Shown here piece after piece: positions 1,641 through 58,160 of a stretch of DNA of 64,000 nucleotides. The notes below the pieces were generated by a model. The model did no database searches and was not told the origin of the DNA. It was given only the letters and a program-made list of their open reading frames with translations. This stretch comes from Patescibacteria group bacterium (GTDB lineage: Bacteria > Patescibacteriota > Minisyncoccia > Phycocordibacterales > PALSA-1337): positions 1,842 to 65,841 of the forward strand of contig JAGXAG010000005.1 of NCBI GenBank assembly GCA_018971685.1, read 5' to 3'. Each line of letters starts with the position of its first letter. Within the stretch, counting starts at the first letter, position 1. Made by a program: the position numbers and the translations under genes.

Positions 1641-1783
1641 GAGAGTAGCGCGGTACTTTGAAAATTAAAAGTAAGTAGAGAATGTAAATGTGCAAGTAAA
1701 CGAAAATATTCCAAATGAGCTGGAAGCGAATATTAAGTAGGCGCATGTAAAAGTGCTTTCTATTTTGTTCCGTTCGCTTATAG

Positions 1784-3722
<1,939 letters not shown>

Positions 3723-19366: not shown

Positions 19367-20665
19367 ATGACAGCTAAAGATTACTTCAAGGGTAAAAGGA
19401 TAGCGCTTATCGGTTTGGGATCATACGGAGAGGAGGTCGAAGATGCCAAATTCATGATAAGGGCCGGCGCTATATTGTCGATATACGACTTGCGCAGTGA
19501 AGCCAGGCTTAAAAGCCATCTTGTCTTTTTGCGTTCTGTCGGTTTGGCCAATTATGTTTGCGGTTCTATTCCGGCCGAAGATCTTCCCGATATGGACCTG
19601 ATAATCTTGTCCAGAGAATATTCACGCAGTTCTTCTTTCTTGGAGAAAGCCACGGAAAAAGGCGTGATGATAGAATATCCGGAAACTTTGTTTTTCAAAT
19701 TGGCTCCGCCCATAACGGTGGTGGGCGTTATGGGCGCGTGCGGCAAGACGACCGTTATTTCTATGTTGGCACCGATGCTATCCGAATCTTGCGGCGGACT
19801 GTACATAAGTGACGGCGCATCCGGCGGCTTGCTGCTTTTCCTGAAGAAGATAAGGAATGGAGACATATTGATCATGAGAATTGACAGTGTGATCGCGGCT
19901 GAACTTAAGGGATTGAATATAAGCCCCCAAGTGGCGGTGCTTACGGGCGTGCCGCCAAAAGGCGTTTACAGCGATTCTCCGTTCGATGTGTTAGCCAACC
20001 AAACTTACAACAATTTCATTGTAGCTTCAGACGAAGTTATCGATGCCACGCGCGTTTACGGATTCAAGCCGCGGGCAAAGATGCTCAGGACGAAAACTTC
20101 CGTCATCCCGGAATCATGGCTGTTCAATGGTCGCACACATGACCGTGAAAATGCAGCGCTGGCCTTACAAACCGCCAAATTGTTCAAGGTGTCGGAAGAT
20201 ACGGCACAAAAAGTTCTCGAAGTATGGAAACCGCTCAAAGGCAGAGTTGAGCTAGTAAAAAAGGTAAAGATGGTCGAGTTTTACAACGACGCCGCCTCGG
20301 CGGTGCCGGAAGCGACCATGGCCGGTATTATTTCGTTGGCACAAAACCGTAATATAGTTTTGATTTTAGGCGGTGCGCACAGTGGTCATGATTACCGCGC
20401 GCTAAACGCGCTTATCCCGCAATATGCGCATACTGTGGTGCTATTGCCCGGCAGCGGGACCATCTTGGAGCGCAAGGAATTGGAGCGTTTGGACAATGTG
20501 GATGTTTTATCGGCACCATCAGTCGAAGAGGCCGTCAGGTTGGCGCAGGATCATGCGCGTTCCGGGGACCGAGTTTTGTTCAGTCCGGGCTTTGATGCCG
20601 CCGGGATCGATTCTTCGTGCAAGGAAAGAGGTGAAAGGTTCGTCAGGGCGGTTAGAGCGTTGTGA
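19367..20665 (+). CDS. murD: UDP-N-acetylmuramoylalanine--D-glutamate ligase-like Mur ligase
   Basis: VVGVMGACGKTTVISMLA P-loop in the Mur ligase central domain; about 430 aa; C-terminal Mur ligase domain. Confidence 0.7.
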   Translation: MTAKDYFKGKRIALIGLGSYGEEVEDAKFMIRAGAILSIYDLRSEARLKSHLVFLRSVGLANYVCGSIPAEDLPDMDLIILSREYSRSSSFLEKATEKGVMIEYPETLFFKLAPPITVVGVMGACGKTTVISMLAPMLSESCGGLYISDGASGGLLLFLKKIRNGDILIMRIDSVIAAELKGLNISPQVAVLTGVPPKGVYSDSPFDVLANQTYNNFIVASDEVIDATRVYGFKPRAKMLRTKTSVIPESWLFNGRTHDRENAALALQTAKLFKVSEDTAQKVLEVWKPLKGRVELVKKVKMVEFYNDAASAVPEATMAGIISLAQNRNIVLILGGAHSGHDYRALNALIPQYAHTVVLLPGSGTILERKELERLDNVDVLSAPSVEEAVRLAQDHARSGDRVLFSPGFDAAGIDSSCKERGERFVRAVRAL

Positions 20666-20675
20666 GTCGTACGGT

Positions 20676-21569
20676 TCAATCGCCGCAAATCAAGCATACG
20701 GCCGAACCGTTGACCTTGAAATTCATGCGCGCGGCTTGCATAACGCCGACAACTGACAGGGCGCCGTTACTTGAGATCTTCAAGCCAGCATGTTTCTCCA
20801 CCAATTCCCGCACAGATCTGATCTCTTCATTCGAAGCGATCCAGCCGTGGCCGCCGGTTTTCTCTATAAGCGGCACCAGTGTATTTTTACGGTAGGCAAT
20901 ATGGTCGACAACGGCGTCAGCGTCTGATTTTTCTTCCGGAATATCGAAAGGACCGAATGCGTCGGCAATCGGGTGACAAGACGAAGTCTGGACAATGTGA
21001 ACCTGTGTCGGCTGTTTATTTTCCAAGAATGATTGGGCGAGCGCTTGCGCCGTCGTACCAGAAGATGTGCCGATAAATACGGCGCCAACATTTTCGATAC
21101 CAGCCAATTCTTCGGCAAGCGTTTTGTAGCCGATGAGCGCTGTGTCATCTGTGGACTGTCTCAAGCTCCGCGAACCGTCGCCGGTCGCCTGCGCCAAAGC
21201 TTGCAGTGGCCGATCCTTCTTTTTTACTTGAATGTTATCGTCAACCAGTGCTTTCAACTTATCGAGCTTTGCGGGTGATATATTCGATCCGACAAATACG
21301 GCCAAATGCACAGGTCCGACCTGTGACACATGTCCGACATCGGCATTGAGCCGTTTTATGTGCATTGCGGCGGCCAAAGCGGCGTTGCCGGAAGAGGAGA
21401 TAGCGAATTTACGATCCCCGCGTTCGAGATAGTAGCTGATCATTACGGGAATGGAACGTCCCTTATGCGAACCGTAAGGGTGCAAATCCTCGCGTTTGAA
21501 GTATAGATCGGACGCGTTGATCGCTTTCGCCAACTCAGGGTAATGTCCGGTAGGGGTTATGGTATTCAC
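20676..21569 (-). CDS. PLP-dependent fold-type-II enzyme, ACC deaminase/D-cysteine desulfhydrase-like
   Basis: YFKREDLHPYGSHKGRSIPVMISYYLERGDRKFAISSSGNAALAAA resembles the KREDL...GGNKxRKLE...SxGGxQSN pattern of that family. Confidence 0.6.
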   Translation of the reverse strand: MNTITPTGHYPELAKAINASDLYFKREDLHPYGSHKGRSIPVMISYYLERGDRKFAISSSGNAALAAAMHIKRLNADVGHVSQVGPVHLAVFVGSNISPAKLDKLKALVDDNIQVKKKDRPLQALAQATGDGSRSLRQSTDDTALIGYKTLAEELAGIENVGAVFIGTSSGTTAQALAQSFLENKQPTQVHIVQTSSCHPIADAFGPFDIPEEKSDADAVVDHIAYRKNTLVPLIEKTGGHGWIASNEEIRSVRELVEKHAGLKISSNGALSVVGVMQAARMNFKVNGSAVCLICGD

Positions 21570-21639: not shown

Positions 21640-21834
21640 ATGATTCAACAAAATATCAAAGACGAAAATTCGTTGCTCGTTTGTCCGGAATGCAAGAATG
21701 CAGTCGATCTCTCCCGTTATCCCAACCTCGCGCCCGGCATGGTGGTTGAATGCAACCACTGCGGCATGACGCTTTTGGTCAAGGAGATTATGAGTAAAGA
21801 GATCAAGGCCGATATAGTTGACGAGGGGAAATAG
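21640..21834 (+). CDS. LysW-like zinc-ribbon small protein (64 aa)
   Basis: MIQQNIKDENSLLVCPECKNAVDLSRYPNLAPGMVVECNHCGMTLLVKEI follows the CPECx...L...GxxVxCxxCGxxLxV arrangement of LysW carrier proteins, but the C-terminus ends ...VDEGK rather than in Glu. Overlaps convergently with the end of the Mpl-like gene. Confidence 0.4.
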   Translation: MIQQNIKDENSLLVCPECKNAVDLSRYPNLAPGMVVECNHCGMTLLVKEIMSKEIKADIVDEGK

Positions 21835-23248
21835 TCTCTTCAATCATTCCCCTGAATCCGTGAGAACCCAGAAAGACGATGATATCGCCATCGACGGTTT
21901 GTGATTTCAAGAAAGAAACAACTTCTTCATCGTCTTCAAAATAATGAACAGAATGATGCGTCTTGCCAATGATCTCTGCCAATTCGGCGCCTTCGAGAGA
22001 CGTATTTGATTTTTCAGATCCATCCTCGACAGTCTTTAGTTTGGTCAATCTCGGAATAACCACAATATCCGCGTCTTTGAAAGCGCGGTCGTATTTCAGG
22101 GTCGATTTCCGACTGCGTCCGCCGATGTTCGGCTCGAAAACCGCGATGATTTTTCCGGAATAAATTTCCCTAAGGTTCCTCAATACCGAAGCCGCCTTTT
22201 CCGGAGAATGGGCGATATCGTCGAACACGGTAACGCCTTTTCCGTCAGAGCTGTCATTCGAAGGATCGCCGATCATCCTTTTCTCAAGCCTCCTTTTAAG
22301 CCCCTTGAATCGGGCAACCGCTTTGATTATTGTTTCGGGGTTTATGCCGATGCTATGTGCCATGGCGAAACAGCCGGTGATATTCTCCGCTTGGAACGCG
22401 CCGATCATTGGCGAATGTATGTCGAACGAATCATGTCCATGTTTTATGGTAAAATAGATGCCATTTTCTGATTGCCTGACATTTTCATAAGAATATTCAA
22501 CGCCACTCTTGCCGTATGAAATAGCCTTGCCGCGATAATCGCCCAAAACCTTGCTTACTCCCGGTGCGTTTGTGTTTGCGACGATAAACCCGGTTTTTGG
22601 CATGGAAACAATCAGCCGTCCAAAGGCCTTGAAGTAACTCTCCTCCGTAGGATACAGGTCGGCATGATCCCAAGAAACAGCCGTCAATAATAGGTGAGTC
22701 GGCTTGTAGTAGAAAAATTTCGCGGTCGGATCGGTCGGCGAGCTCTTGTATTCATCGCCCTCGAAAACACCCCAATCGCCGCCGGCCAATTTTGCCGATT
22801 GATGGGAAAGGGAAATGCCGCCGAACATATAGCTAGGATCATAGCCGGCTTGGTCAATGATGAACGACAAAAGCGCCGCCGAAGAAGTCTTGCCCCAGGT
22901 GCCGGCGCAAACGATATTGTTTTTGCGGGTGAAAAATTCACCTATGGCTCCGGCGAAAGAATAAATCGGGATGCCGTGTTCTTTGGCGTAAACAGTTTCC
23001 GGATTGCGGCTGCCGGAAGCCGTGCCGACGATGATCGCTTCCGGTACGCCGCCGGCGACCATTTTGTCCGGATGCCAACCGGCGTAATATTCGACGCCGG
23101 TTTCAGCAAGATATGTGGATACCGGCGGATAGAAACCTTTGTCGGAGCCGGTCACTTTGACGCCCACTTTGTGCAAGGCAACAGCTAAAGCGCTTGTTGC
23201 TACGCCGCATATGCCTATTACATGGATCCGTTTCGGCAGTTCCATCAT
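21803..23248 (-). CDS. Mur ligase of the MurC/Mpl subfamily (UDP-MurNAc:tripeptide ligase-like)
   Basis: N-terminus RIHVIGICGVATSALAVALHKVGVKVTGSD...YPPVSTYL and AGTWGKTSSAALLSFII closely parallel Mpl/MurC (HILGICGT...VTGSD...YPPMST; AGTHGKTTT). Confidence 0.8.
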   Translation of the reverse strand: MMELPKRIHVIGICGVATSALAVALHKVGVKVTGSDKGFYPPVSTYLAETGVEYYAGWHPDKMVAGGVPEAIIVGTASGSRNPETVYAKEHGIPIYSFAGAIGEFFTRKNNIVCAGTWGKTSSAALLSFIIDQAGYDPSYMFGGISLSHQSAKLAGGDWGVFEGDEYKSSPTDPTAKFFYYKPTHLLLTAVSWDHADLYPTEESYFKAFGRLIVSMPKTGFIVANTNAPGVSKVLGDYRGKAISYGKSGVEYSYENVRQSENGIYFTIKHGHDSFDIHSPMIGAFQAENITGCFAMAHSIGINPETIIKAVARFKGLKRRLEKRMIGDPSNDSSDGKGVTVFDDIAHSPEKAASVLRNLREIYSGKIIAVFEPNIGGRSRKSTLKYDRAFKDADIVVIPRLTKLKTVEDGSEKSNTSLEGAELAEIIGKTHHSVHYFEDDEEVVSFLKSQTVDGDIIVFLGSHGFRGMIEETISPRQLYRP

Positions 23249-23949
23249 GGCTGGTTAATGTTATTAGACGCTAGTATTCTTTTCACTTCCTCGATATCAC
23301 CCGACCATTTTTTGCCGTCGAACCATTCAATACCATGGAATTGGAGTTTGTAGGTGTCGCTTGGCCGTTGAAGTGAACCCATGTAGAAAAAATTTTTGCC
23401 AACATCCTTGGCGTGTTGGATCGCCATGATCATCATGCCGAGCCCGATGTCTTTGGGCGAAGCGTTAAGATCATAGAACGGATAAGAATAATGCATGAAT
23501 GAAGCTACGGAATAGACAATCGCGTATCCGACATGCTGCGGTACGACCTCGGTGCTCTGAAGTCGTACCGCAGTAGAATAAGTCAATAATCGGTTGAAAT
23601 TGCTTTTTGTTTCATCCGTAATCATCTCTTTGATTTTTTGTGCACTCATTATTCCGGGCCCGAATTTTGTGTCGTAAAAATCTTTTGCCATTTTCGCAAT
23701 CTTCCAATCGTATTTTTCCGGCGGCATGGGCAAACTGACTTTTTTCGGTTTTATGTCGCCGACCTTTTTCAGTATTCTGCGATTTTCGCTTGTCAATTCG
23801 AATTTCGACAGATCTATTCTGGCGCTTCGGGTCTGATCCATGATCCCTTTGCCGAGGCGAGTGAAAAGGTAACCGCGGCTGTACATTCCGGCGACATTTG
23901 GTTCCGAAAAATCGGTTATTATTTTTTCATCCCATTTTAAATACGGCAT
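23245..23949 (-). CDS. Bpt/ATE-like aminoacyl-tRNA--protein transferase family protein (GNAT fold)
   Basis: FELTSENRRILKKV matches the ATE_C ...SxxxRRVLKxN motif. HYSYPFYDLNASPKDIGLGMMIMAIQHAKDVGKNFFYMGSLQRPSDTYKLQFHGIEWFDGKKW matches the YxYYDP...G...YLGY...MxYK..F.P.E...G.W block. Confidence 0.5.
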   Translation of the reverse strand: MPYLKWDEKIITDFSEPNVAGMYSRGYLFTRLGKGIMDQTRSARIDLSKFELTSENRRILKKVGDIKPKKVSLPMPPEKYDWKIAKMAKDFYDTKFGPGIMSAQKIKEMITDETKSNFNRLLTYSTAVRLQSTEVVPQHVGYAIVYSVASFMHYSYPFYDLNASPKDIGLGMMIMAIQHAKDVGKNFFYMGSLQRPSDTYKLQFHGIEWFDGKKWSGDIEEVKRILASNNINQP

Positions 23950-23953
23950 GAGA

Positions 23954-25081
23954 TCAATGCAACGCCAGCCAGAATCCGAATACGACGAAAATAAAATGAA
24001 TCACCCAGAACCTCATGACTGTTTTCTCCTCGCTCCATCCTTTGAGCTCGAAATGGTGATGCAGCGGTGCCATCGCAAACACTTTTTTGCCGAAAAGATA
24101 TTTCGAGATCACTTGGATGATTACTGACAACGCTTCGACATAGAACATAAAACCCAAGAAAGGCAAAGAGCCGATCTCTCCGATTGCCATCGCATTCACG
24201 GCCAGAAGTGCGCCCAAGCCCAATGAACCGACATCGCCCATCATGAATCGCGCCGGTTTGATATTGAAATAAGTGTAAGCCGACAGTGCGCCGACGGCCG
24301 TGGCGTTCAGGATCGCGATCTCACCGAAGCCGTTGATCCACGAGATCAACGAGAGTGCACTGAAAGTGATGATGAGCATGCCGCCGGTCATGCCGTCCAT
24401 GCCGTCGGTGATGTTGACCGCATTGGCGGTGAACATGACGATGAATATCACTATGGGTACGATCAGCCAGCCGGCGTTCCAGTCAAAACCGAAAGGAAAA
24501 TAGACGAAATGCCAAGCCGGGCCGAGCTTTGCGTATATCCAATACGCGGCGATGGCGCCGGCCGCGAATTGTAATAAAAGTTTCTCGTGAACGAAGACGC
24601 CGCGGCGGGTGCGCGAGCCGAACCAGACAGACAGGCGCTTGAAAGCGGTCCATGGCAAAGAAATGAGGTACCAAAGACGCATGCGCCATTCTTTATGGAC
24701 TTTGATCAGATTCCAGACATGGCCGATCTTGCGCGAGCGGCGCTCGGTGCCGTAAATATTCAAAAGGTCGTCGATGGCGCCCAACAGGGCGGCGATTATC
24801 ATTATTCCCACCGGCACCCAGGTGAAGCTCCGGGACCAATTCAAGGCGTAAGTGACGACGGCGATGGTGACTATGACGAGCAATCCGCCCATGACCGGGG
24901 TGGATGTTTTGTAGGCGTGGGAACCGACGGCGGCGAGTTCGGTTTTGGCGCCTTTGACGACCTTGAAATGGTAAAGGATGCGAGTCAGAAATGGCGCCCA
25001 CGCGAATGCGACAACGGCGCTGATCAGCATGAAACTGATGATGTAAGCGAGATCGGCGGTGCCCTGCAAAATCGTTAACAT
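23954..25081 (-). CDS. mraY: Phospho-N-acetylmuramoyl-pentapeptide transferase (GT4 MraY/WecA family)
   Basis: About 10 TM helices; NAVNITDGMDGMTGG (NxxNxxDGxDGL signature); PLHHHFEL near the C-terminus. Confidence 0.85.
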   Translation of the reverse strand: MLTILQGTADLAYIISFMLISAVVAFAWAPFLTRILYHFKVVKGAKTELAAVGSHAYKTSTPVMGGLLVIVTIAVVTYALNWSRSFTWVPVGIMIIAALLGAIDDLLNIYGTERRSRKIGHVWNLIKVHKEWRMRLWYLISLPWTAFKRLSVWFGSRTRRGVFVHEKLLLQFAAGAIAAYWIYAKLGPAWHFVYFPFGFDWNAGWLIVPIVIFIVMFTANAVNITDGMDGMTGGMLIITFSALSLISWINGFGEIAILNATAVGALSAYTYFNIKPARFMMGDVGSLGLGALLAVNAMAIGEIGSLPFLGFMFYVEALSVIIQVISKYLFGKKVFAMAPLHHHFELKGWSEEKTVMRFWVIHFIFVVFGFWLALH

Positions 25082-25162: not shown

Positions 25163-25933
25163 TCAGAACCAATTGAGGCGCCGGATTTCGGTCTTTGAAT
25201 TTCGGGCGCGTTCGAAGATACGGAGATTGTCGCCGAGCCACTTTTGTTCAACGAGCGATTTTTCCGTATCAGTGATTTCGATGGCGCCTTGCCTGACGCC
25301 GGTGCCGTATAGGCCATCTTCAGGATAGGCGACGGCGTGAGTGTAATAAAGTTTGGTCGGTGTGAAATTTTGGTAGTCGGCTTGGTGAATTATCAACACA
25401 TGATCCCTGTCATCGCCGCGCGCGGTTACTGATTTTCCGATCATGGTGATGATGTCTCCCGGCCGGATTTCTTTGATGCTGATCGTACCGCTGTTTCTAT
25501 TGTTTGCCAATGTGGCAATATCGCAGTTTTCGGCGGGACGCATGGAGCAGCGGATCTTGCCGACAATGCCTTTACAATTTACAAAATGAAGATGTTTGTC
25601 GATGACGCCTTTGCCGCGGTCTCCGTTCTCGGCGTTCAGTACATAATACGCGAATCCGGAACAGTCAATGCCGATATTTTCGTCAACCAACAACATCTTC
25701 AAGGACTGGTCGGCCAAAGAATCTGCGGTTATGTGATTTTTCGTTGCGACGGCTTGGATTTCCTCGAATATGTCTTTGGGACTGCCCTTGCCGACTCTGG
25801 CTCTGAGCGCGGCTCTCATCCGCGCGGTTTTATTGTTGAAATACGGGACCGAGCAAACGGCGTTGCCAAATTTGAAGTGTATATATTGATCGATCACTGA
25901 CAGCGCGCGATTTGAAACAGTTTTGGTGTTCAT
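25163..25933 (-). CDS. Cytoplasmic NlpC/P60 (C40) family cysteine peptidase-like protein
   Basis: IGIDCSGFAYYVL (catalytic Cys motif), then RPGDIITM...DHVLIIHQ (pGDLxff...HVgIy motif). No signal peptide or TM segment. Confidence 0.55.
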   Translation of the reverse strand: MNTKTVSNRALSVIDQYIHFKFGNAVCSVPYFNNKTARMRAALRARVGKGSPKDIFEEIQAVATKNHITADSLADQSLKMLLVDENIGIDCSGFAYYVLNAENGDRGKGVIDKHLHFVNCKGIVGKIRCSMRPAENCDIATLANNRNSGTISIKEIRPGDIITMIGKSVTARGDDRDHVLIIHQADYQNFTPTKLYYTHAVAYPEDGLYGTGVRQGAIEITDTEKSLVEQKWLGDNLRIFERARNSKTEIRRLNWF

Positions 25934-27126
25934 GGCCGTTGTTTGATAATTTCCGCGATCTCTTTCCCGCTTTTATTCAGTTTGCCGTGGCTCTCTACGA
26001 AACTGTGAATGCTTCGGATCCTCAACAGATCGGAATTTATCTTAACATTTGAATAAACGGTTGTCTTATATCCGGCGGATTCCATGGCAGAGATGGCGTT
26101 GGCGGGAACTTCGACGGTATCCTTGGTGACGCGCTGGATGATCTGTCCGCCATCGGAGATTTTAATCAGCGGCTGATCTATAGGCTGTTCGAGCAGAGCG
26201 AGCAGATGGGCTTCGAATATACTGAGGTCGGACTTCGATGTTGAGCTCAGGTCGGACCTCGGTAAACTTTGCAACTGCGATTCGAAAGTGGCCGAAGCCG
26301 GCTGGCGGGCATTGATCTCTATAAGGAAAATACGGCCGGATTGTTCGTCTTTGATGGCATCGACGCCGAAAAGGCCGCGCCAACCATCGGCGCGCATCCG
26401 TTCGCCGATCTCACGCGCAATGGTTTCAATCTGCGCGATTTCATTGTCGGCCAAGATCGTATGCGCGGCGCCCCAATCATTGCCGACGGTGCTGAACGGA
26501 TTGTCGGTAAACGGCGCCATGCCGGTTATTTGGTAACTGACATTGCCAACCATGATTTTGTTTTTCGCCGCGACGACATTTGCCGTGAATGACGGGCCGG
26601 CCACAAATGTCATCGCGCGCGCGGGGCGTTCCGTGAATTTTTCTTGAACCGCGCGCAATTCCTCGGCGGATCCTATTGAGACAGTGCCGTCGCCGGTATG
26701 TCCGTGCGCCCATTGAACGACCATTTTGGAGGATTTACACATGTCCGACATGTGCAGATCTTTGGTTGGAGCGATCTTATGCGCCGGCAAATACTTCAAG
26801 GCCAAGTCGCCAAGCCATTCAACTTGAGTTATTTTGTTCTCGATCTTCTCGGCGAGCGCTGCGGACGGATTCAATAATTCCCAACCGTTCTTGTTGCATA
26901 TATCTTCTATTTGCGAATTATTTTTGAACACCAGCACCGCCGCACCGCTGTTGCCGATAATTTTACGCGTCGAGTCAAGTTGTAACAATTCGGCGGTTGA
27001 GAGCGGCCTCGAATCGCGTCGCGAACTGTCGTTTGAGATTATTTTATAATCATCGCTTTCCGGCACGCCCTGCGCGCGTTCCGCATCCCGCGTTACATAA
27101 ACGATTTTCTTTTTGAACGGCTGCAT
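25930..27126 (-). CDS. ATP-grasp family ligase of unknown specificity
   Basis: WRGLFGVDAIKDEQSGRIFLIEINARQPAS is a typical ATP-grasp C-terminal Mg/ATP motif; ~400 aa. Confidence 0.55.
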   Translation of the reverse strand: MQPFKKKIVYVTRDAERAQGVPESDDYKIISNDSSRRDSRPLSTAELLQLDSTRKIIGNSGAAVLVFKNNSQIEDICNKNGWELLNPSAALAEKIENKITQVEWLGDLALKYLPAHKIAPTKDLHMSDMCKSSKMVVQWAHGHTGDGTVSIGSAEELRAVQEKFTERPARAMTFVAGPSFTANVVAAKNKIMVGNVSYQITGMAPFTDNPFSTVGNDWGAAHTILADNEIAQIETIAREIGERMRADGWRGLFGVDAIKDEQSGRIFLIEINARQPASATFESQLQSLPRSDLSSTSKSDLSIFEAHLLALLEQPIDQPLIKISDGGQIIQRVTKDTVEVPANAISAMESAGYKTTVYSNVKINSDLLRIRSIHSFVESHGKLNKSGKEIAEIIKQRP

Positions 27127-30883: not shown

Positions 30884-30971
30884 TCTCTGAAACAGTTTTT
30901 TACCCGGCGTACTATATGGAGCAGTGCGCCGGCTTTTTGTATTCGACTTTTCCGTTCCGTGGTACAATACT

Positions 30972-33074
30972 ATGCATCAATCGTTCGCGGGAACGGCAAC
31001 CGCATTTAATTCAATGGACGAGAATCGCGTAACATATTTTGCGGAGACAGACGCGCGTAACAAGCGGGTCAAATTTGGCATAAAGAGCAAGGACAGGACC
31101 AAGCATCTGTACGCCATCGGCAAAACCGGCATGGGCAAATCCACCATGTTGGAAAACATGGCCGTGCAAGACATTCAGGCCGGAGAAGGAATGTGTTTCA
31201 TCGATCCGCATGGCAAGACCGCCGACCTGCTCTTGGAATATGTGCCCAAAGAGCGCGTGAACGATGTCATATACATCGCGCCGTTCGATACCGACTTTCC
31301 GATATCGTTCAATGTGCTCGAAAGCGTCGATCCGGACAAGAGGCACTTGGTGGTGTCTGGCCTCATGAGTACATTCAAGAAAATCTGGGTCGACGCCTGG
31401 TCCGCCAGAATGGAATACATATTGACCAACACCCTTTTGGCATTGCTCGAAGCGCCGGGTTCCACGCTTCTCGGCGTGAATAGGTTGCTGTCGGACAAGG
31501 AATACAGGAGAGACATCGTGTCGAAAGTGCAGGATCCGTCGGTCAAAGCTTTCTGGACCAAGGAGTTCGCCAATTACAGCGAACGCATGGCTCAAGACGC
31601 TGTGCCCGCCATCCAGAACAAAGTCGGCCAATTCACCGCGAACCCGCTCATCAGGAACATGATCGGCCAGCCGCAGTCGTCGTTTGATTTCCGCCAGGCG
31701 ATGGATAACAGGAAAATAGTCATTATCAACCTTTCCAAAGGCCGGGTCGGCGACGAGAACATGAAGCTTTTGGGCGGCATGCTGGTGACGAAGATTTATT
31801 TGGCGGCAATGTCCAGGGCCGATACGCCGGATCGTATAGCCAGGACTCTGCCGAACTTCTATTTGTTCGTCGATGAATTCCAGAACTTCGCCAACGCCTC
31901 GTTTGCCGATATTCTTTCGGAGGCCAGGAAGTACAAGCTGAATTTGACGATCGCGCATCAATATATCGAGCAGATGGACGAGGATGTGCGCGCGGCGGTC
32001 TTCGGCAATGTGGGCACGATGATAGCTTTTCGGGTCGGCGCGACCGATGCGGAAGCGCTGGAGAAGGAATTTGCGCCGACTTTCACGATCGAGGATTTGG
32101 TGAATCTTGGATTCACCCAAATTTACCTAAAGTTAATGATCGACGGCCTGACCTCGTCGCCTTTTTCGGCGGTGACTTTGCCGCCGATCGCGCACCCGGG
32201 TTCTTCATTTGTAAAAGAAATTATCGAGGCGTCTAGAACACAATTCGCGCGGCCGCGAGTAATGGTTGAAGCTGAGATAGTGAAATTCCACGAACCGACG
32301 CAGAAATCGGCGCGGTCTGCTATTCCCGCGCCCGCAGGCGAAGCGCTTGCCGGTTCGAGTCTGCGGAACTCGCGTCGTGAAGTTGCCAGGTTTTCGGGCT
32401 CGACAGCGCGACCCGAAAACCTGGCAACTTCTACGCCGCTCAAACAGAGTCCTCGACTCGAACCGGCAAGCGCTTCGCCTGCGGGCGCGGCTGACGCAAG
32501 TACTTCAGTCGCTGCCAATATTTCCACTGATTCCAAAACTTCATCAGCGCCGTCGGCAAAGACGGATACGGTTTCCGAACCCTCTTCGGAGACGGGTTGG
32601 AGACAAAATCCGCATACTACCGACTCCCCGCCGAGAAAAGGCGGCGACGGCGGGCGTCCTGTTGTTCCGCTGTCACCGACCGTGGGTGAGGGAAACCGTG
32701 TTCGTAGAGCCGAAAAGCGCGAAGAGCTTGGACAGCATAACCAACAACATATTTCACTATCGTCGCTCAGTCGCAATCAACCCAAGCGCGACCTGAAGAC
32801 GCAATCGAAAGAGAATGTCAGTCAATTGAGAAACGCCCTGCAAGCCGCGCTCGGCAAGACCGAACGCGCCGCGCCCACTTTCTCGCCGACCGATGCCGCC
32901 GCGTCCGTTCCAGCCACAGCGCCTGCCGCGACAACCCAAAATACAATTGCCTCACAACCCGTACGGCAAAACCAAGCACTTCAAAAAACACCTGAAATTC
33001 CAAAAGTTCCGAAAACCGATAAAGTTCCTGAAGTCCCCGAAGAAGTCTTGAAAAAGGTCTTGAAAGTTGATTGA
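30972..33074 (+). CDS. Soluble VirD4/TraD-like type IV coupling-protein-family ATPase with ~250-aa low-complexity C-terminal tail
   Basis: Walker A AIGKTGMGKST; Walker B FYLFVDEFQNF; LTIAHQYIEQMDEDVRAAVFGNVGTMIAFRVGATDAEALEKEF matches the T4CP C-terminal block. No N-terminal TM. An extended -10 TGGTACAAT lies just upstream. The start is ambiguous (30972 or 31014). Confidence 0.65.
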   Translation: MHQSFAGTATAFNSMDENRVTYFAETDARNKRVKFGIKSKDRTKHLYAIGKTGMGKSTMLENMAVQDIQAGEGMCFIDPHGKTADLLLEYVPKERVNDVIYIAPFDTDFPISFNVLESVDPDKRHLVVSGLMSTFKKIWVDAWSARMEYILTNTLLALLEAPGSTLLGVNRLLSDKEYRRDIVSKVQDPSVKAFWTKEFANYSERMAQDAVPAIQNKVGQFTANPLIRNMIGQPQSSFDFRQAMDNRKIVIINLSKGRVGDENMKLLGGMLVTKIYLAAMSRADTPDRIARTLPNFYLFVDEFQNFANASFADILSEARKYKLNLTIAHQYIEQMDEDVRAAVFGNVGTMIAFRVGATDAEALEKEFAPTFTIEDLVNLGFTQIYLKLMIDGLTSSPFSAVTLPPIAHPGSSFVKEIIEASRTQFARPRVMVEAEIVKFHEPTQKSARSAIPAPAGEALAGSSLRNSRREVARFSGSTARPENLATSTPLKQSPRLEPASASPAGAADASTSVAANISTDSKTSSAPSAKTDTVSEPSSETGWRQNPHTTDSPPRKGGDGGRPVVPLSPTVGEGNRVRRAEKREELGQHNQQHISLSSLSRNQPKRDLKTQSKENVSQLRNALQAALGKTERAAPTFSPTDAAASVPATAPAATTQNTIASQPVRQNQALQKTPEIPKVPKTDKVPEVPEEVLKKVLKVD
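32329..32489. repeat. Family-A hairpin element, in-frame copy inside the T4CP-like gene (32-bp perfect terminal inverted repeat)
   Basis: GCGCCCGCAGGCGAAGCGCTTGCCGGTTCGAG (32329-32360) is the exact reverse complement of 32458-32489. Inner stem GTTGCCAGGTTTTCGGG/CCCGAAAACCTGGCAAC around loop CTCGACAGCGCGA. Encodes ...PAGEALAGSSLRNSRREVARFSGSTARPENLATSTPLKQSPRLEPASASPAG... Confidence 0.7.
32633..32700. repeat. Family-B GC-rich repeat, in-frame copy in the T4CP-like gene
   Basis: ACTCCCCGCCGAGAAAAGGCGGCGACGGCGGGCGTCCTGTTGTTCCGC...CGTGGGTGAGGGAAACC is ~80 percent identical to 58881-58958 in secA. Confidence 0.55.
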
Positions 33075-52941: not shown

Positions 52942-53762
52942 ACGATATCTGCGAAATATCTTTCGACCTTTTTGAACATATATACTCCTGCAACAAGCAA
53001 GATCACACACCCCATGAACGATATTGCCAAAAGAAACCAGTTGATCGGCGCCGTGCCCAAGAGCGCGGCGCGAGCGTTTTGGATGACGCCGGTCATGGGG
53101 TTTATGGCTAACAGTTTGGAATATTTTCCAGCAATCGATGCCGGATATATTACCGGGGTGACAAACAGGAGTATTTGTACGAAGTAAGGTAATACATAAC
53201 GAACATCCCTGTATTTAACATTAATTGCTGCCAGGAATAGGCCGCCGCCGACCGAAGCCATGAATGTGATGACAAGCAATAGCGGTATCATAAGAAGTCC
53301 GGTGAAGCTCGGCATGAACCCGTAATATATCATGAGTCCGACCATGATTATCGCGGCTATGAAGAAATCAACAAGTTGGGTAATGACCGAAGATATCGGC
53401 AATATTAGGCGCGGGAAGTAGACTTTGGTGATCAGGGCCTGATTGCCAACCAATGAATTGGCCGTGCCGGAAAGAGCCGCGGAGAAGAATTGCCAGAATA
53501 ATAGACCTGTGTATACAAAGATTGGATAGGGCACATTGTCAGAGGGTATTTTTGCCAGACCGCCGAAGAAGACCGAAAAGACCACCATAGACATGAACGG
53601 CTGGAATACGGCCCATGCCGCTCCTATAAAGGTTTGCTTGTATCTGACTTTAAGATCACGCCAGGTAAGGAAATATAGTAGCTCCTTGTATATCCATAAC
53701 TCTTTCAGATCCGACAGGTGGAATATTTTCTTGGGGCGGATGACTGTTACTTGTGTGGACAT
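52938..53762 (-). CDS. ABC-2 type polysaccharide export permease (Wzm-like)
   Basis: Six TM helices; LVGNQALITKVYFPRLILPISSVITQLVDF is the ABC-2 signature. Confidence 0.85.
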   Translation of the reverse strand: MSTQVTVIRPKKIFHLSDLKELWIYKELLYFLTWRDLKVRYKQTFIGAAWAVFQPFMSMVVFSVFFGGLAKIPSDNVPYPIFVYTGLLFWQFFSAALSGTANSLVGNQALITKVYFPRLILPISSVITQLVDFFIAAIIMVGLMIYYGFMPSFTGLLMIPLLLVITFMASVGGGLFLAAINVKYRDVRYVLPYFVQILLFVTPVIYPASIAGKYSKLLAINPMTGVIQNARAALLGTAPINWFLLAISFMGCVILLVAGVYMFKKVERYFADIV

Positions 53763-53876
53763 GCGGCTATCCTATCACATTACAAAGTCGTTGTTGAGCT
53801 TTTGTCTGCCATGATATATGATAGTTTCATTACTCTAAGCCGCACGACGATTAGTCGCGGAATTACCATAACGCAC

Positions 53877-56132
53877 ATGACCATCAAAAAAACCACTCGC
53901 TTTGTAACGATCGCCGCTCTCTTCCTCGTCCCCATTTTCGCTCTGATCGTAGCCAACTCGCTCTTTTTCCCGTTTATTACCGGCAAGGCATTCTATTTCC
54001 GCCTCATGGTTGAGATCGCTTTCGCCGCCTGGGTGATTCTGGCTTTTCTTGATGCCAGATACCGGCCGAAGCTGAATGCTCTCACGGTCGGCGTGACACT
54101 TTTTACTGTTGTCGCCCTCATTGCCGACCTTCTGGGCGTGAATCCGATCCGAAGCATGTGGTCCAATTTCGAACGCATGGAGGGCTGGATAACGATCGTT
54201 CATCTGTGGGCGTTCTTCATCGCGGCGGCGGCGGTGTTCGGCGCGGAAGGGGAGGCGAAAAAGTGGTGGCATCGGTTCTTCAATTTCGAATTGGCGGTGG
54301 CTTTTGTCGTCGGGCTTTACGGCTTGGGACAATTGCTCGGCTGGTTCGCGATCCATCAGGGTTCGACCAGGATCGACGCGTCGCTGGGCAATGCGGCGTA
54401 CATGGCGGTTTACATGCTCATGAACGCCGGTTTGGCGGCGTACTTGTTCCTGGCGGAAAAGGCGAAGCGCGCGGCGGCAAAATCGCCGGGCATTTCATTC
54501 ATGGGCTGGATATATATTGTTCTTACCGTACTCTTTTCTTTCCTCCTCTTTGAAACTTCCACTCGCGGCACGATTCTCGGCTTTACCGGCGGACTCATGC
54601 TGGCGCTTTTCCTCTATGCGCTTTTTGCCAAGAATGGATCCAAGCGGTCGCGCATGATCTCAGGCGGCGTCGTGGCGCTCATTGTGATCGCGGGCATCGG
54701 CATTTACGCTTTGCGCAACCAGCCGATCGTCAAGAACAACGAGGTCTTGAACCGCATGACGAGCATTTCCTTGAGCAATACCGAGTCGACGGCGCGCCTT
54801 TATATCTGGCAAATGGCTCTGACCGGCTGGACCGAAAGGCCGGTTTTGGGTTGGGGCCAGGAGAATTTCAACTACATCTTCAACGCCAATTACAATCCGA
54901 AAATGTGGTCGCAGGAGCAGTGGTTCGATCGCGCGCACAGCGTATACTTCGACTGGCTGGTGGCTGGAGGGTTGGTGGGACTCATGGCTTATCTCGCGCT
55001 GTATGTATTGTTGTTGCGCGGAATTTGGAAATCGGGATTTACCATGTCCGAAAAGTGCGCCTTGACCGGACTGGTGGCCGGCTACGCGGTGCACAACATA
55101 TTTGTGTTCGATAACTTGGCGAGCTATGTCTTGTTCTTTACTCTGCTCGGATTCGTTGCGTCGATAAAATCCTCCGCTGCTTTGCGGCACCCCCTTTTGC
55201 AAAGGGGGAATTCATCGCAAGAATCTTTCACTAACGGCGCTTCAACCATAGGCGGAACGAAGGAAGTCAGGCCCGAGATAGTCGAATATGTGGTGGCGCC
55301 GATATCGATCGTCGCCTTGGTTATCGTGATTTTCTTCTTTGAACTGCGCCCATACCAAGCCAATACCGCTCTTATCACCGCTTTGCAATCATGCTCCGGA
55401 CCGACGCCGGACGCTACATTGTTCGACAAGGCGCTTGCCGTGAACACTTATGTTGCCAACCAGGAAATCCGCGAGCAGTCGCTCTCTTGCGCCGGTTCGG
55501 TCATCGGAAGCCAGAGTGCGCCCGGACCGACGAAGCAGGCTTTCTTCCAGTTGGCCGTGAATAATATCCAGGCTCAGATTGCCGCCACGCCGAAAGATGC
55601 GAGGATGTATGTGCTCGGCGGCGGATTCTTGCTGGGTGCGGGACAAAACGCGCAAGCCCTGCAGCTGCTCGTCGACGCGCACGCGCTGTCGCCGGCCAAA
55701 CAGTCGATTGATTTTCAATTGGCGCAAGCGTATTTGAATGCCGGCCAGATACCGGAATCAGTGGCGGTATTGCGGCAAGCCTATGAAGGCGATCCGTCGT
55801 ATGGCGAAGCGCGCTCGGCCTATGCCACCGGGTTGGTTCTGACCGGGCAGGAAAGTTTGGCGCACCAATTGTTCGGCGACGATCCGGCGGTATTCCAGAC
55901 CGAGCAGATGGCGGGCGTATATGCCAACCTGAAGCAATACCAAAAAGCGATCTCGATCTATGTTGCGCTCATCAAAAACAGCCCGACGGATGTCAACTTG
56001 CTTTCCAGGCTTGCGCAAATACAATACGCGGCGGGCATGAAGACGCAAGCGATTGCGACCTTGCGCAGTATTGAGAAGGATCATCCGGAATACAAAGACC
56101 AGATCGAGGCGGCGATCAAGCAGGTGCAGTAG
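53877..56132 (+). CDS. O-antigen ligase/Wzy_C-domain polytopic membrane protein fused to C-terminal TPR repeats (candidate glycan ligase/O-oligosaccharyltransferase)
   Basis: About 12 TM helices with a large loop (Wzy_C-like); the C-terminal ~250 aa carry TPR-like repeats (AQAYLNAGQIPESVAVLRQAYEGDPSYGEA...). The start is taken at the ATG at 53877; the listed 53718 start overlaps Wzm. Confidence 0.65.
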   Translation: MTIKKTTRFVTIAALFLVPIFALIVANSLFFPFITGKAFYFRLMVEIAFAAWVILAFLDARYRPKLNALTVGVTLFTVVALIADLLGVNPIRSMWSNFERMEGWITIVHLWAFFIAAAAVFGAEGEAKKWWHRFFNFELAVAFVVGLYGLGQLLGWFAIHQGSTRIDASLGNAAYMAVYMLMNAGLAAYLFLAEKAKRAAAKSPGISFMGWIYIVLTVLFSFLLFETSTRGTILGFTGGLMLALFLYALFAKNGSKRSRMISGGVVALIVIAGIGIYALRNQPIVKNNEVLNRMTSISLSNTESTARLYIWQMALTGWTERPVLGWGQENFNYIFNANYNPKMWSQEQWFDRAHSVYFDWLVAGGLVGLMAYLALYVLLLRGIWKSGFTMSEKCALTGLVAGYAVHNIFVFDNLASYVLFFTLLGFVASIKSSAALRHPLLQRGNSSQESFTNGASTIGGTKEVRPEIVEYVVAPISIVALVIVIFFFELRPYQANTALITALQSCSGPTPDATLFDKALAVNTYVANQEIREQSLSCAGSVIGSQSAPGPTKQAFFQLAVNNIQAQIAATPKDARMYVLGGGFLLGAGQNAQALQLLVDAHALSPAKQSIDFQLAQAYLNAGQIPESVAVLRQAYEGDPSYGEARSAYATGLVLTGQESLAHQLFGDDPAVFQTEQMAGVYANLKQYQKAISIYVALIKNSPTDVNLLSRLAQIQYAAGMKTQAIATLRSIEKDHPEYKDQIEAAIKQVQ
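55184..55213. repeat. Family-C small hairpin element (CCCCCTTT-TGC-AAAGGGGG) in-frame in the Wzy_C-TPR gene
   Basis: GCGGCACCCCCTTTTGCAAAGGGGGAATTC is the near reverse complement of 60714-60742 in secA. Confidence 0.5.
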
Positions 56133-56957: not shown

Positions 56958-58160
56958 TTGATGAAGATATCGAAAAATATTCTCTTGGCGCAATATACGA
57001 CTTTCAAGATCGGCGGCCCGGCGCGCTTTTTCTGCGCAGTTGCGGATGAAAAAGAGTTGGTTGAAGCGGTCAAATTCGCCAAAGAAAAAAGTCTCAGGAT
57101 TTTCGTCCTGGGCGGCGGGTCGAACATTTTGGTTTCCGATGACGGTTTCAGCGGATTGGTCATAAAAAACGAGATGAAAGGCGTCGGCGGCGGTAATAAT
57201 TTTTATTTCAAGACGGATGAGGAAGCCGGAAACGCTCTCGGTGGCGGTAACAGTATCGACAATGAATCGATCGCGGCCGCGGCAGGGGAAATCTGGGACG
57301 ATCTGGTCAAATATACCGTTGAGAGAAATCTGGCTGGCATAGAAAATTTGTCGGGGATACCGGGTACCGTCGGCGCCGCGCCGGTGCAAAACATCGGCGC
57401 TTACGGCACCGATGCGGCCCAGACGATCGAAACAGTAAGAGTGCTTGATTTAAACAGCATGAAATTCAAGGAGCTGACAAACAAAGAATGCGAATTTGGT
57501 TACAGGGATAGTATTTTCAAGAAACAAAAAGGGCGGTATATCGTCACGGCGGTTTCATTCCGGCTCAAAAAGGGCGGCCGGGCCAATATTGACTATGCTG
57601 ATCTGCAGGAATATTTCGGCCGCAAACAAGCCCGGAATCCCATGCCGAAAACGGCCAAACTGCCGATTTTCAATCCGAAACGGTCAAGCGCCGACGGTTC
57701 CGGCGGCGCGATTGCCGGAATACACGCCGCCGCGGGCGGGTTTGATGAGCCGCTGAAGTTCGAGCCGAGCATCGTCGATGTGCGTGATGCGGTTGTGGAA
57801 ATTCGCCGGAATAAATTGCCGGATTGGACGCATTGGGGAACAGCCGGATCGTATTTCAAGAATCCGGTAGTGGACGAGGCCAAGTGCCGAGAATTGACGA
57901 ACAAATTTCCGGGAATTGTCTGTTTTCGCGAAAGCGCCGGCATGCACAAATTTTCGTTAGGATGGATCATCGACAAAATCTGCCACATGAAAGGCGTTAC
58001 CGTCGGCAATGTCGGCACGCACGATCGCCAAGCGCTCGTTCTGATCGCCAAGCCAGGCGCTTCCGCCAAAGAAGTAGTGGCATTGTCGGAAAACATCATG
58101 CGGCGCGTGCGCGAAGAAACCGGCCTTGAGATCGAGATGGAGGTGGAGTGGGTGAATTGA
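56958..58160 (+). CDS. murB: UDP-N-acetylenolpyruvoylglucosamine reductase MurB, with ~50-aa Gly/Ala-rich insert
   Basis: LAQYTTFKIGGPARFF, RIFVLGGGSNILVSD and GTAGSYFKNPVV. Insert ...KRSSADGSGGAIAGIHAAAGGFDEP... Confidence 0.85.
   Translation: MMKISKNILLAQYTTFKIGGPARFFCAVADEKELVEAVKFAKEKSLRIFVLGGGSNILVSDDGFSGLVIKNEMKGVGGGNNFYFKTDEEAGNALGGGNSIDNESIAAAAGEIWDDLVKYTVERNLAGIENLSGIPGTVGAAPVQNIGAYGTDAAQTIETVRVLDLNSMKFKELTNKECEFGYRDSIFKKQKGRYIVTAVSFRLKKGGRANIDYADLQEYFGRKQARNPMPKTAKLPIFNPKRSSADGSGGAIAGIHAAAGGFDEPLKFEPSIVDVRDAVVEIRRNKLPDWTHWGTAGSYFKNPVVDEAKCRELTNKFPGIVCFRESAGMHKFSLGWIIDKICHMKGVTVGNVGTHDRQALVLIAKPGASAKEVVALSENIMRRVREETGLEIEMEVEWVN

Follow-up and report, generated by a model that had tools for sequence, protein, structure and literature searches.

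A cysteine-less relative of Bpt/ATE1 aminoacyl-tRNA transferases conserved in peptidoglycan-synthesis gene clusters of Patescibacteria, with a probable role in cell-wall precursor synthesis

Gene content and operon structure of the locus

We analyzed a stretch of 64,000 nucleotides (nt) from a Patescibacteria group bacterium (contig JAGXAG010000005.1 of assembly GCA_018971685.1; hereafter, the window), in which a gene related to the ATE/Bpt aminoacyl-tRNA transferases lies among genes for peptidoglycan synthesis. This gene (hereafter, the target) occupies positions 23245-23949 on the minus strand, begins with ATG, and encodes a protein of 234 amino acids (aa) without cysteine, which was assigned from its open reading frame (ORF), the Pfam ATE_C and NCBIfam profiles, hhalign, and a Foldseek comparison of its AlphaFold2 model. 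On the same strand, it is flanked by the genes for the phospho-MurNAc-pentapeptide transferase MraY (23954-25081, 375 aa; Glycos_transf_4, E=3.5e-24; TIGR00445, E=1.3e-51, 176 bits against a cutoff of 192) and for a MurC/Mpl-family UDP-MurNAc (UDP-linked N-acetylmuramic acid) ligase (21803-23248, 481 aa) with three Mur-ligase Pfam domains. An original prediction, made from the sequence alone, had described an arginyltransferase-family gene between MraY and an Mpl-like ligase; the ORF and all the motifs quoted there were present, namely ENRRILKK at residues 55-62, YPFYD at 156-160, YMGS at 189-192, and YKLQFHGIEWFDGKKW at 200-215.

Only 4 nt separate the stop codon of MraY from the ATG of the target, and the TGA of the target is shared with the ATG of the ligase gene in an ATGA overlap. 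These distances indicate that MraY, the target, and the ligase must be co-transcribed, and the three genes are probably translationally coupled. Since promoter and terminator scans gave consensus-level matches that were not clearly above those of shuffled sequences, the operon was argued from the 4-nt gap and the overlaps. In an Rfam scan of the window, the 16S rRNA and a pair of tRNAs were the only matches, and neither a riboswitch nor a T-box turned up close to the operon.

The identical protein in the databases is named 'hypothetical protein KGQ27_02750' (Patescibacteria group bacterium), and members of the family are annotated publicly as 'arginyl-tRNA--protein arginylyltransferase' or N-end-rule transferase domain (JGI, UniRef), or as 'hypothetical'. 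The target had 1305 database homologs at E<=1e-3, its family is approximately 60% identical across Paceibacteria, Taylorbacteria, and Magasanikbacteria, and 66 columns are invariant in an alignment of 30 family sequences, indicating that the target is not a chance ORF.

Family assignment and fold

The window protein matched Pfam ATE_C (PF04377) at E=1e-3 with 20.2 bits, below the gathering cutoff of 25, and the NCBIfam arginyltransferase (Bpt) models (PRK01305) at E=5.6e-11 with 42.1 bits, below the equivalog cutoff of 267. The original prediction had proposed a profile search with PF04377 and PF04376 versus FemAB (PF02388) as a check of its family assignment. Among the 30 aligned family members, all matched ATE_C at E<=0.1 (best E=1.7e-7), none matched ATE_N (PF04376), FemAB, or Leu_Phe_trans, and 17 showed a weak match to Acetyltransf_6, a generic GNAT family. 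As judged from these profiles, the homology to ATE_C is real, although weak for the single window sequence and firm only for the family as a whole. Alignment of the family with the annotated Bpt of Sinorhizobium meliloti by hhalign gave a probability of 93% (E=2.5e-7) over 163 columns. Because no PDB chain was matched when the family profile was searched against PDB sequences, the link to ATE1 is drawn from Pfam, NCBIfam, hhalign, and the comparison of folds.

The AlphaFold2 model of the target had a predicted local distance difference test score (pLDDT) of 93.3 and a predicted TM-score (pTM) of 0.90, and its best PDB matches in Foldseek were all aminoacyl-tRNA-dependent transferases. Normalized to the query, the TM-score was 0.68 for human ATE1 and 0.62 for Kluyveromyces lactis Ate1, followed by the L/F-transferase (2dpt, 0.47), FemX (0.44-0.45, over approximately 200 of 335 residues), and the MprF synthase domain (0.40-0.45; 4v36, E=1.4e-7, TM-score 0.45). 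L/F-transferase (Aat) and the MprF domain thus share the aminoacyl-tRNA transferase superfamily with the target and are among its fold matches, whereas the target has no Pfam match to them, lacks a membrane flippase domain, and is found in another genomic context. These results identify the target as a distant, cysteine-less relative of Bpt and ATE1 that shares their type of GNAT fold but lies outside formal Bpt membership by every curated cutoff. In this sense the earlier assignment to the Bpt/arginyltransferase family held, with ATE1 as the closest solved fold.

Comparison with Ate1 and Bpt at the residue level

Residues of the target were mapped by chained alignments (Bpt to Ate1 and the family to Bpt) onto the structure-function data published for K. 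lactis Ate1 (PMC9351520). The catalytic-site pair of that enzyme, Tyr303-Lys304 (PMC9351520), corresponds to Y200-K201 of the target, and Trp260 corresponds to Y159; the family shows no variation at any of the three target residues. In Ate1, the tRNA 3' region is bound by a basic helix, which is present in the target as SENRRILKK and aligns with SKSHKKVLKK of human ATE1, with R58 invariant and R57, K61, and K62 conserved in >=90% of the family. Direct alignment likewise revealed a conserved core common to the target family and Bpt. The likeness to Bpt/ATE1 therefore comprises ATE_C homology, the fold, the Tyr-Lys pair, the S-x-x-R-R-x-L-K-K helix, the Y-x-F-x-D and Y-L-G motifs, and a size about equal to that of Bpt.

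Other hallmarks of these enzymes differ in the target, in addition to the missing ATE_N match and the Bpt score of 42 bits. The ATE_N metal motif of Ate1 consists of four zinc-binding cysteines (PMC9351520), whereas no cysteine is invariant in the target family and the YRPACETCRAC segment of Bpt faces non-cysteine residues. In the GFRRSG motif of Ate1, the first arginine (Arg80) is essential for the recognition of acidic N-termini (PMC9351520). This motif is replaced by G(Y/F)L(F/P)TR, reading GYLFTR in the target and GFLP(T/Y)R in relatives, with leucine at the Arg80 position, in a segment aligned by motif only and lying within residues 1-38, outside the coverage of hhalign; an invariant arginine, Arg31, follows three residues after the Arg80-equivalent position. 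Moreover, Glu277 of Ate1, which binds the arginine side chain (PMC9351520), is replaced by Ala176, leaving no acidic residue in the arginine pocket. The residue comparison indicates that the tRNA-handling and catalytic core has been kept while the acceptor pocket is altered, and it makes arginine very unlikely as the donor. A prediction of donor size from the pocket residues was dropped because these residues vary even among true Bpt enzymes, as those of S. meliloti Bpt (M, M, H, V) differ from the published Vibrio vulnificus residues.

Conservation of the cell-wall context

We collected 103 loci, 23 from species-representative genomes and 80 from metagenomes, in which the target protein is 45-64% identical to the window copy. 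Neighbors were counted by tblastn with the proteins adjacent to the target in the window, and the denominators are the loci with enough flanking sequence. MraY was found upstream on the same strand in 69 of 70 loci (within 150 nt in 54 of them), and the MurC/Mpl-like ligase was found downstream in 61 of 63. The association extends to a small zinc-ribbon ORF and a pyridoxal phosphate (PLP) enzyme of the PALP family (each in 47/50 loci), an NlpC-like protein (48/55), an ATP-grasp protein (45/55), and, within 10 kb, a MurD-like ligase (24/43). Loci without the upstream ATP-grasp/NlpC pair, which are of the Magasanikbacteria type, show the order class-B penicillin-binding protein (PBP), MurF, MraY, target, and ligase, which makes them genuine division/cell-wall (dcw) clusters; genes for MurB and FtsZ are further recurrent neighbors.

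The association with the ligase goes as far as gene fusion. In three loci (L041, L046, and L049), one polypeptide combines an ATE-like N-terminus with a ligase C-terminus, and the linker is different in each. A search with one fusion as the query recovered ATE-like/ligase fusions in at least nine distinct 90%-identity clusters, with approximately 100% query coverage and 53-62% identity, from JGI, NCBI, ENA, and Logan. One natural fusion, P0125, has a length of 747 aa. Complexes of Mur enzymes and non-sequential fusions between them are known, and a survey of Mur chimeras describes MurE-MurF, MurC-Ddl, MurC-MurB, MurG-MurC, MurD-FtsW, and MraY-MurG, with no ATE-like/ligase fusion among them (PMC10214165). 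The literature searched likewise yielded no earlier account of an ATE/Bpt-like gene within a dcw cluster or among Mur genes. Conservation in 103 loci, in divergent lineages of the Candidate Phyla Radiation (CPR), and in at least nine fusion clusters confirms, at the computational level, the cell-wall operon context on which the original prediction was built. A cell-wall role of the target is thus strongly supported by comparative genomics.

In other loci, DNA between the cluster genes encodes toxin-antitoxin systems, a group II intron reverse transcriptase, Nudix, RlmH, and hypothetical proteins; this content is miscellaneous, and the inserted DNA was rejected as a further component of the module. 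ORFs for group II intron-type reverse transcriptases and toxin-antitoxin-like pairs interrupt the otherwise packed operon in some genomes, for example, at L002:2326-2976(-) and L066:4154-5185(-). Furthermore, the labels 'uncultured Gammaproteobacteria' (L007, L009, L018) and 'Candidatus Saccharibacteria' (L001, L002, L021) look wrong for a cluster of the Paceibacteria/Magasanikbacteria type, which suggests mis-binning or mislabelling of these public metagenome-assembled genome records.

Divergent relatives

An exhaustive profile search of 1.84 billion representatives returned 441 proteins at E<=1e-3, of which 83 reached E<=1e-30. Below the core family lies a tier of proteins of 250-275 aa with the same motifs and no cysteine motif. 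Genomic context was looked up for ten of these proteins: four were linked to Mur genes, five were not, and one (P0294) was on a contig too short for its context to be judged. The Mur-linked CPR homologs are 30-40% identical to the target and lie in textbook dcw clusters of differing gene order, in each case beside the same ligase. P0310 (L105; 137 bits; CPR assembly GCA_001792305.1) lies in the order MraZ, RsmH, FtsL-like, PBP, MurA, MurE, NlpC-like (on the opposite strand), a second MurE-type ligase, the ATE-like gene, and a MurC/Mpl-like ligase, with start/stop codon overlaps on either side of the ATE-like gene, a second NlpC-like gene directly after the ligase, and a LysW-like ORF and a PALP gene further downstream. 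In P0278 (L115; 195 bits), the order is ATE-like, ligase, PgeF-like, MurB, MurA, MraZ, and RsmH, and in P0302 (L121; 156 bits), a Mur ligase precedes the ATE-like gene with a 4-nt overlap. P0283 (L120; 189 bits) has on a single strand a Mur ligase, PgeF-like, LysW zinc ribbon, ATE-like, MurC/Mpl-like ligase, PALP, ATP-grasp, NlpC-like, and MraY. From these contexts, linkage to cell-wall genes emerges as a trait derived within CPR lineages and preserved although gene order was shuffled. As the ±8-kb region around the ATE-like homolog in L105 contains no MraY, the invariant partner of the target is the MurC/Mpl-like ligase and not MraY.

A gene of the PgeF/YfiH type (Cu-oxidase_4) adjoins the ATE-like/ligase pair in two divergent lineages (L115:3355-4179 and L120:2574-3443). 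In Escherichia coli, PgeF edits position 1 of the stem peptide. In addition, Mur ligases without the N-terminal UDP-MurNAc-binding domain are found directly upstream of the ATE-like gene or MraY (L105:6739-8004, L120:985-2514, and L121:58-1377), and the same domain is missing from a MurF-like family, c23 (e.g., L017:2447-3739). The truncated ligase of L105 is of the MurE type, covers only profile positions 68-471, and lies alongside a full-length MurE, and the P-loop is at approximately residues 30-45 in the L120 and c23 ligases. Their domain composition raises the idea that such ligases might act on substrates without a nucleotide link.

The non-CPR members of the cysteine-less ATE_C group (P0312, P0350, P0362, P0392, and P0399; loci L109-L114, L117, and L122) form a clade with a signature of its own, HYW...YK(V/I)R, and are probably not canonical Bpt either. 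One contig of this clade carries CDC48/WD40 genes.

The partner ligase

The NCBIfam scores of the ligase did not separate MurC from Mpl: the window copy scored 243 bits with murC and 194 with mpl, that of L105 scored 204 and 211, and that of L115 scored 253 and 241, all below the cutoffs. Against E. coli references, the ligase was closer to Mpl (173 versus 99 bits by BLAST and 264 versus 196 bits with the family hidden Markov model), whereas it was equidistant when compared with all solved structures (110-125 bits for MurC and 106-120 bits for Mpl). The name Mpl, which the comparison with E. coli alone had favored, was rejected in view of the broader PDB comparison. At the level of motifs, the ligase shares an Mpl-only insertion of the same length after DE(Y/H/F), together with a GSD..YPP motif, and it lacks the equivalents of Tyr346, His376, and Arg377 of the L-Ala site of MurC. 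DEY (Tyr182) is present. The Mpl signature (S/T)AFFDKRSK reads SPTDPTAK in the window ligase and is closer in L105 (YFDEKSKF) and L115 (NYDMNAKF).

Compared with MurC and Mpl, the partner ligase is thus alike in its three Mur-ligase domains, the Mpl-type insertion after DEY, the GSD..YPP motif, and its 105-125 bits to both, and unlike in falling below both curated cutoffs, in lacking the AFFDKRSK of Mpl in the window sequence, and in not conserving the L-Ala-site residues of MurC. From these sequence features, we regard it as a putative member of the MurC/Mpl family with Mpl-like features. The description of this gene as Mpl-like in the original prediction was therefore right as to the insertion but not as to overall similarity.

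Other components of the module

A LysW-type zinc-ribbon protein of approximately 54-64 aa is encoded on the plus strand at 21640-21834 (the listed ORF starts at 21559) and overlaps the 3' end of the ligase gene; copies elsewhere include L120:3569-3772 and L105:12491-12643(-). Pfam Zn_ribbon_LysW (PF21344) was the best match for 16 of 16 orthologs (best E=1.9e-9), including the window copy (25.4 bits, cutoff 27). The L120 ortholog, directly upstream of the ATE-like gene, has a strong precomputed match to this family, and the top two PDB profile matches were the LysW entries 3wwl and 5k2m (E~0.01). The ORF adjoins the PALP gene in the window and in L105. Its C-terminus is a nearly invariant (I/V)VDEGK in the window family and IEEEK/LEEEK in L120 and L105, with glutamate at position -3 and lysine at position -1 invariant.

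LysW-like carriers are known from lysine/arginine and secondary-metabolite pathways, in which the system consists of the carrier, an ATP-grasp loader, and a release hydrolase, and the functional tail is EDWGE with the terminal glutamate as the attachment site. The small protein resembles these carriers in its CPxC...CxxCG layout, its acidic C-terminal tail, and the co-occurring ATP-grasp ligase. It differs in that the EDWGE tail with its terminal-glutamate attachment site is absent and the tail ends in lysine; moreover, the ATP-grasp is not of the RimK/LysX type, LysZ, LysY, LysJ, and LysK are lacking, and the context is a dcw cluster. The known partners of LysW (kinase, reductase, and aminotransferase) were not recurrent in the target loci. 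We found no report in the literature of a LysW-type protein in a dcw context.

Upstream of MraY, the minus strand encodes a divergent papain/NlpC-P60-like protein (25163-25933, 256 aa; Pfam NlpC_P60, E=0.007), and the start of its gene is overlapped by the stop of an orphan ATP-grasp ligase (25930-27126, 398 aa; ATP-grasp_3, E=4e-6; NF005096, E=1e-19). The papain-like protein has an invariant Cys91 (DCSGF) and His178 and no signal peptide by inspection; its AlphaFold2 model (pLDDT 84.9) had weak Foldseek matches to IdeS, NlpC/P60, and Tae2, with none at E<=1e-3. The ATP-grasp had no sequence relative in the PDB, even with a profile of 16 family sequences, and identification as LysX-like or Ddl-like was set aside as not demonstrable, there being no solved relative. 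The two proteins are fused in four loci (L089:6550-8622, L092:5982-8009, L097:661-2631, and L101:773-2872), a domain pairing that resembles glutathionylspermidine synthetase/amidase with the order reversed.

On the other side of the ligase, a fold-type II PLP enzyme is encoded at 20676-21569 on the minus strand (297 aa; PALP, E=4.9e-33). It is weakly threonine-synthase-like, with ThrC models at <=50 bits, far under the cutoff, and PDB threonine synthases at E~1e-7, and it is also present in L105 and L120. A divergent MurD-like ligase follows on the plus strand (19367-20665, 432 aa; MurD-like_N and Mur_ligase_C), scoring 132 bits with TIGR01087 murD against a cutoff of 212.

Other features of the window

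The remaining genes of the window include housekeeping genes, a glycosyltransferase cluster, and MurB. The MurB gene (56958-58160, plus strand; FAD_binding_4 and MurB_C) lies 33 kb from the module, and its presence confirms UDP-MurNAc synthesis in this organism. A type IV coupling protein of the TrwB/TraG type is encoded at 30924-33074. After it comes a cluster of approximately 20 kb (30924-53762, counted with the coupling protein) with genes for glycosyltransferases (GT4, GT2, GT9, and GT11), for epimerases and methyltransferases, for a polysaccharide deacetylase, and for an ABC exporter of the Wzt/Wzm type; an O-antigen-ligase/TPR protein is encoded at 53718-56132. Together, these genes form a surface-glycan locus that is large for so small a genome. 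The 16S rRNA gene (1780-3702, plus strand) is 1923 nt long against a model of 1533 positions and contains an insertion of approximately 390 nt; insertions of this kind have been reported for many CPR rRNA genes.

Proposed function and alternative explanations

We propose that an enzyme of the ATE/Bpt (N-degron) branch has been recruited into peptidoglycan-precursor synthesis in Patescibacteria, where the target would carry out a tRNA-dependent step as a cytoplasmic, peptide-bond-forming transferase, a reading to which we assign a probability of roughly 0.7. The donor would be an uncharged L-amino acid other than arginine, delivered by an aminoacyl-tRNA, and the acceptor would be a free amino group of a stem-peptide intermediate. 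FemX, FemAB, and MurM use aminoacyl-tRNA to acylate the amine at position 3 of UDP-MurNAc-pentapeptide or lipid II. By analogy, the target may acylate the side-chain amine of a position-3 diamino acid on a UDP-MurNAc-peptide or lipid I, giving a branch or cross-bridge residue; this specific version is the simplest, has direct precedent, and is the one that we favor, although at somewhat less than even odds. The target is like the Fem proteins in its association with genes for peptidoglycan-precursor synthesis, in its predicted donor and class of acceptor, and in its GNAT-derived superfamily, with FemX among its fold matches. It is unlike them in that no family member matches PF02388, the TM-score is approximately 0.45, and it is a single unit of 234 aa, whereas Fem proteins have approximately 335-420 aa and two GNAT domains (plus a coiled coil in FemA). 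To our knowledge, Fem genes are neither embedded in dcw clusters nor fused to MurC-type ligases.

Several observations weigh against this proposal. The cysteine-less ATE_C family is not intrinsically a cell-wall family, since its non-CPR members P0312, P0392, P0350, P0362, and P0399 (86-135 bits; Bacteroidota-like and other non-CPR contigs) have no Mur linkage. No tRNA gene that might hint at the donor is consistently present with the cluster, and the tRNA-Ile/Leu genes found 8-19 kb away in some Paceibacteria belong to the wider synteny. The invariant partner is a position-1-type ligase (MurC/Mpl), sometimes joined by PgeF, and not the MurE, MurF, or MurG that would be expected for branching at position 3. 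Furthermore, the full-length MurE of L105 scores as a diaminopimelate type, and walls of that type are usually cross-linked directly. ATE/Bpt enzymes normally acylate the alpha-amines of N-terminal residues and not side-chain amines. The Fem-like view also leaves the LysW-like carrier, the ATP-grasp, the papain-like protein, and the PLP enzyme without a role, and because the module includes these components, the acceptor need not be a side-chain amine of the Fem type.

One alternative gives the transferase a part in building the stem peptide. Its acceptor would be a peptide or amino acid that starts with D-Glu and is either free or attached to the LysW-like carrier, and the transferase would supply the N-terminal residue (e.g., L-Ala delivered by Ala-tRNA) to the free alpha-amine of this acceptor. 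The adjoining or fused MurC/Mpl-like ligase would then load the peptide onto UDP-MurNAc, and the synthesis, extension, and release of the other parts would fall to the ATP-grasp or an N-truncated Mur ligase, together with the PLP enzyme and the papain-like protein. Mpl is known to load the recycled tripeptide onto UDP-MurNAc, and the ligase, which carries the Mpl-only insertion and lacks the MurC residues that bind L-Ala, is the invariant neighbor and fusion partner of the target, in the order transferase then ligase. The ancestral specificity of ATE/Bpt for the alpha-amines of N-terminal Asp/Glu (PMC9351520) fits such an acceptor, although the Arg80 that serves the acidic side chain is not conserved. 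The full set of genes is collinear in L120 and recurs in shuffled order elsewhere. In L105, L120, and L121, the ATE-like gene is directly preceded by a Mur ligase devoid of the UDP-MurNAc-binding domain, and L115 and L120 each have a neighboring gene for PgeF, which edits position 1. However, the ligase, equidistant from MurC and Mpl, may simply be the MurC of the organism, and the coexistence of the MurD-like ligase and a full-length MurE with the module suggests an intact canonical route. The tail of the LysW-like protein (VDEGK or EEEK) also departs from the functional one, and no solved relative reveals the ligation substrate of the ATP-grasp. On balance, we consider this route rather unlikely. 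In its broadest form, the module (the LysW-like carrier, the ATP-grasp or a UDP-domain-less Mur ligase, the PLP enzyme, the papain-like release enzyme, and the ATE-like transferase) would build a peptide or an unusual amino-acid unit off the nucleotide, on or with the carrier and with aminoacyl-tRNA as one donor, and the MurC/Mpl-like ligase would load the unit onto UDP-MurNAc; that such off-nucleotide assembly takes place is, in our estimate, doubtful.

The same components could instead make a non-proteinogenic or diamino acid for the Mur ligases by carrier-protein biosynthesis, the transferase acylating or protecting a carrier-bound amine without touching a peptidoglycan precursor directly. 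The LysW assignment of all 16 orthologs and the LysW entries at the top of the PDB matches agree with this, as do the carrier, ATP-grasp loader, and release hydrolase of known LysW systems, the co-conservation of the components in 45-48 of 50-55 loci, and the position of the LysW-like ORF next to PALP (window, L105) or the ATE-like gene (L120). It is nevertheless improbable, given that the kinase, reductase, and aminotransferase of LysW pathways do not recur in the loci, the ATP-grasp is not RimK/LysX-type, and both the tight coupling and the fusion involve the Mur ligase and not the carrier; moreover, we know of no LysW pathway that uses aminoacyl-tRNA. That the fold was retained without the use of tRNA has even less to recommend it; the target would then be either a GNAT-type transferase supplied by a different acyl donor or a subunit that serves a Mur-enzyme complex as a scaffold without catalytic activity. 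The weak Acetyltransf_6 matches of 17 of 30 members and the known complexes and non-sequential fusions of Mur enzymes (PMC10214165) would suit it, but the contacts of Ate1 to the tRNA 3' end and its basic tRNA-binding helix are invariant or nearly so in the target family, and 66 invariant columns speak for catalysis and against a scaffold. The least probable explanation, by a clear distance from any even chance, is a canonical or regulatory N-degron function, in which a destabilizing residue would be added to N-terminal Asp/Glu of proteins, possibly the neighboring Mur enzymes, for degradation by Clp. Homology to Bpt/ATE1 and the arginyltransferase or N-end-rule transferase labels given to relatives by JGI and UniRef are in its favor. 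Against it, all Bpt equivalog cutoffs were failed, the ATE_N domain, the cysteine motif, and the Arg80 equivalent are missing, and a fusion to a Mur ligase would have no rationale. Likewise, Clp, ClpS, ClpA, and Aat were found neither in the 64-kb window nor among the recurrent neighbors of the 103 loci, and the canonical Bpt of S. meliloti has no comparable cell-wall neighbors. The original prediction had offered N-degron tagging of the neighboring enzymes as its second option, and this option found no backing, as neither the window nor the flanks of related loci contain Clp genes.

Implications

As far as we know, tRNA-dependent addition of amino acids to peptidoglycan has been described solely for the Fem/MurM family, and the ATE/Bpt family has been known solely for tagging the N-termini of proteins for degradation. 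The target may represent tRNA-dependent aminoacylation of peptidoglycan by a different transferase lineage and may belong to a new pathway; if the proposal is true, a second, independently recruited branch of aminoacyl-tRNA transferases would participate in cell-wall synthesis, and would do so in the CPR. The target differs from Bpt and ATE1 in a genomic context of peptidoglycan synthesis instead of proteolysis, with Mur-ligase fusions in some genomes. The widespread automatic label 'arginyl-tRNA--protein arginylyltransferase' is probably wrong on the donor and the acceptor alike.

The CPR makes up a very large share of the bacterial tree, and almost none of it has been cultured. The LysW-type carrier, the ATP-grasp, the papain-like protein, and the PLP enzyme that accompany the target suggest that peptidoglycan precursors of these bacteria are made or modified non-canonically, which would bear on the supply of D-amino acids and diamino acids in reduced, host-dependent cells as well as on their susceptibility to antibiotics. 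Should stem peptides be assembled off the nucleotide, the module would provide a tRNA- and carrier-dependent alternative or supplement to MurC-MurD-MurE that is specific to Patescibacteria.

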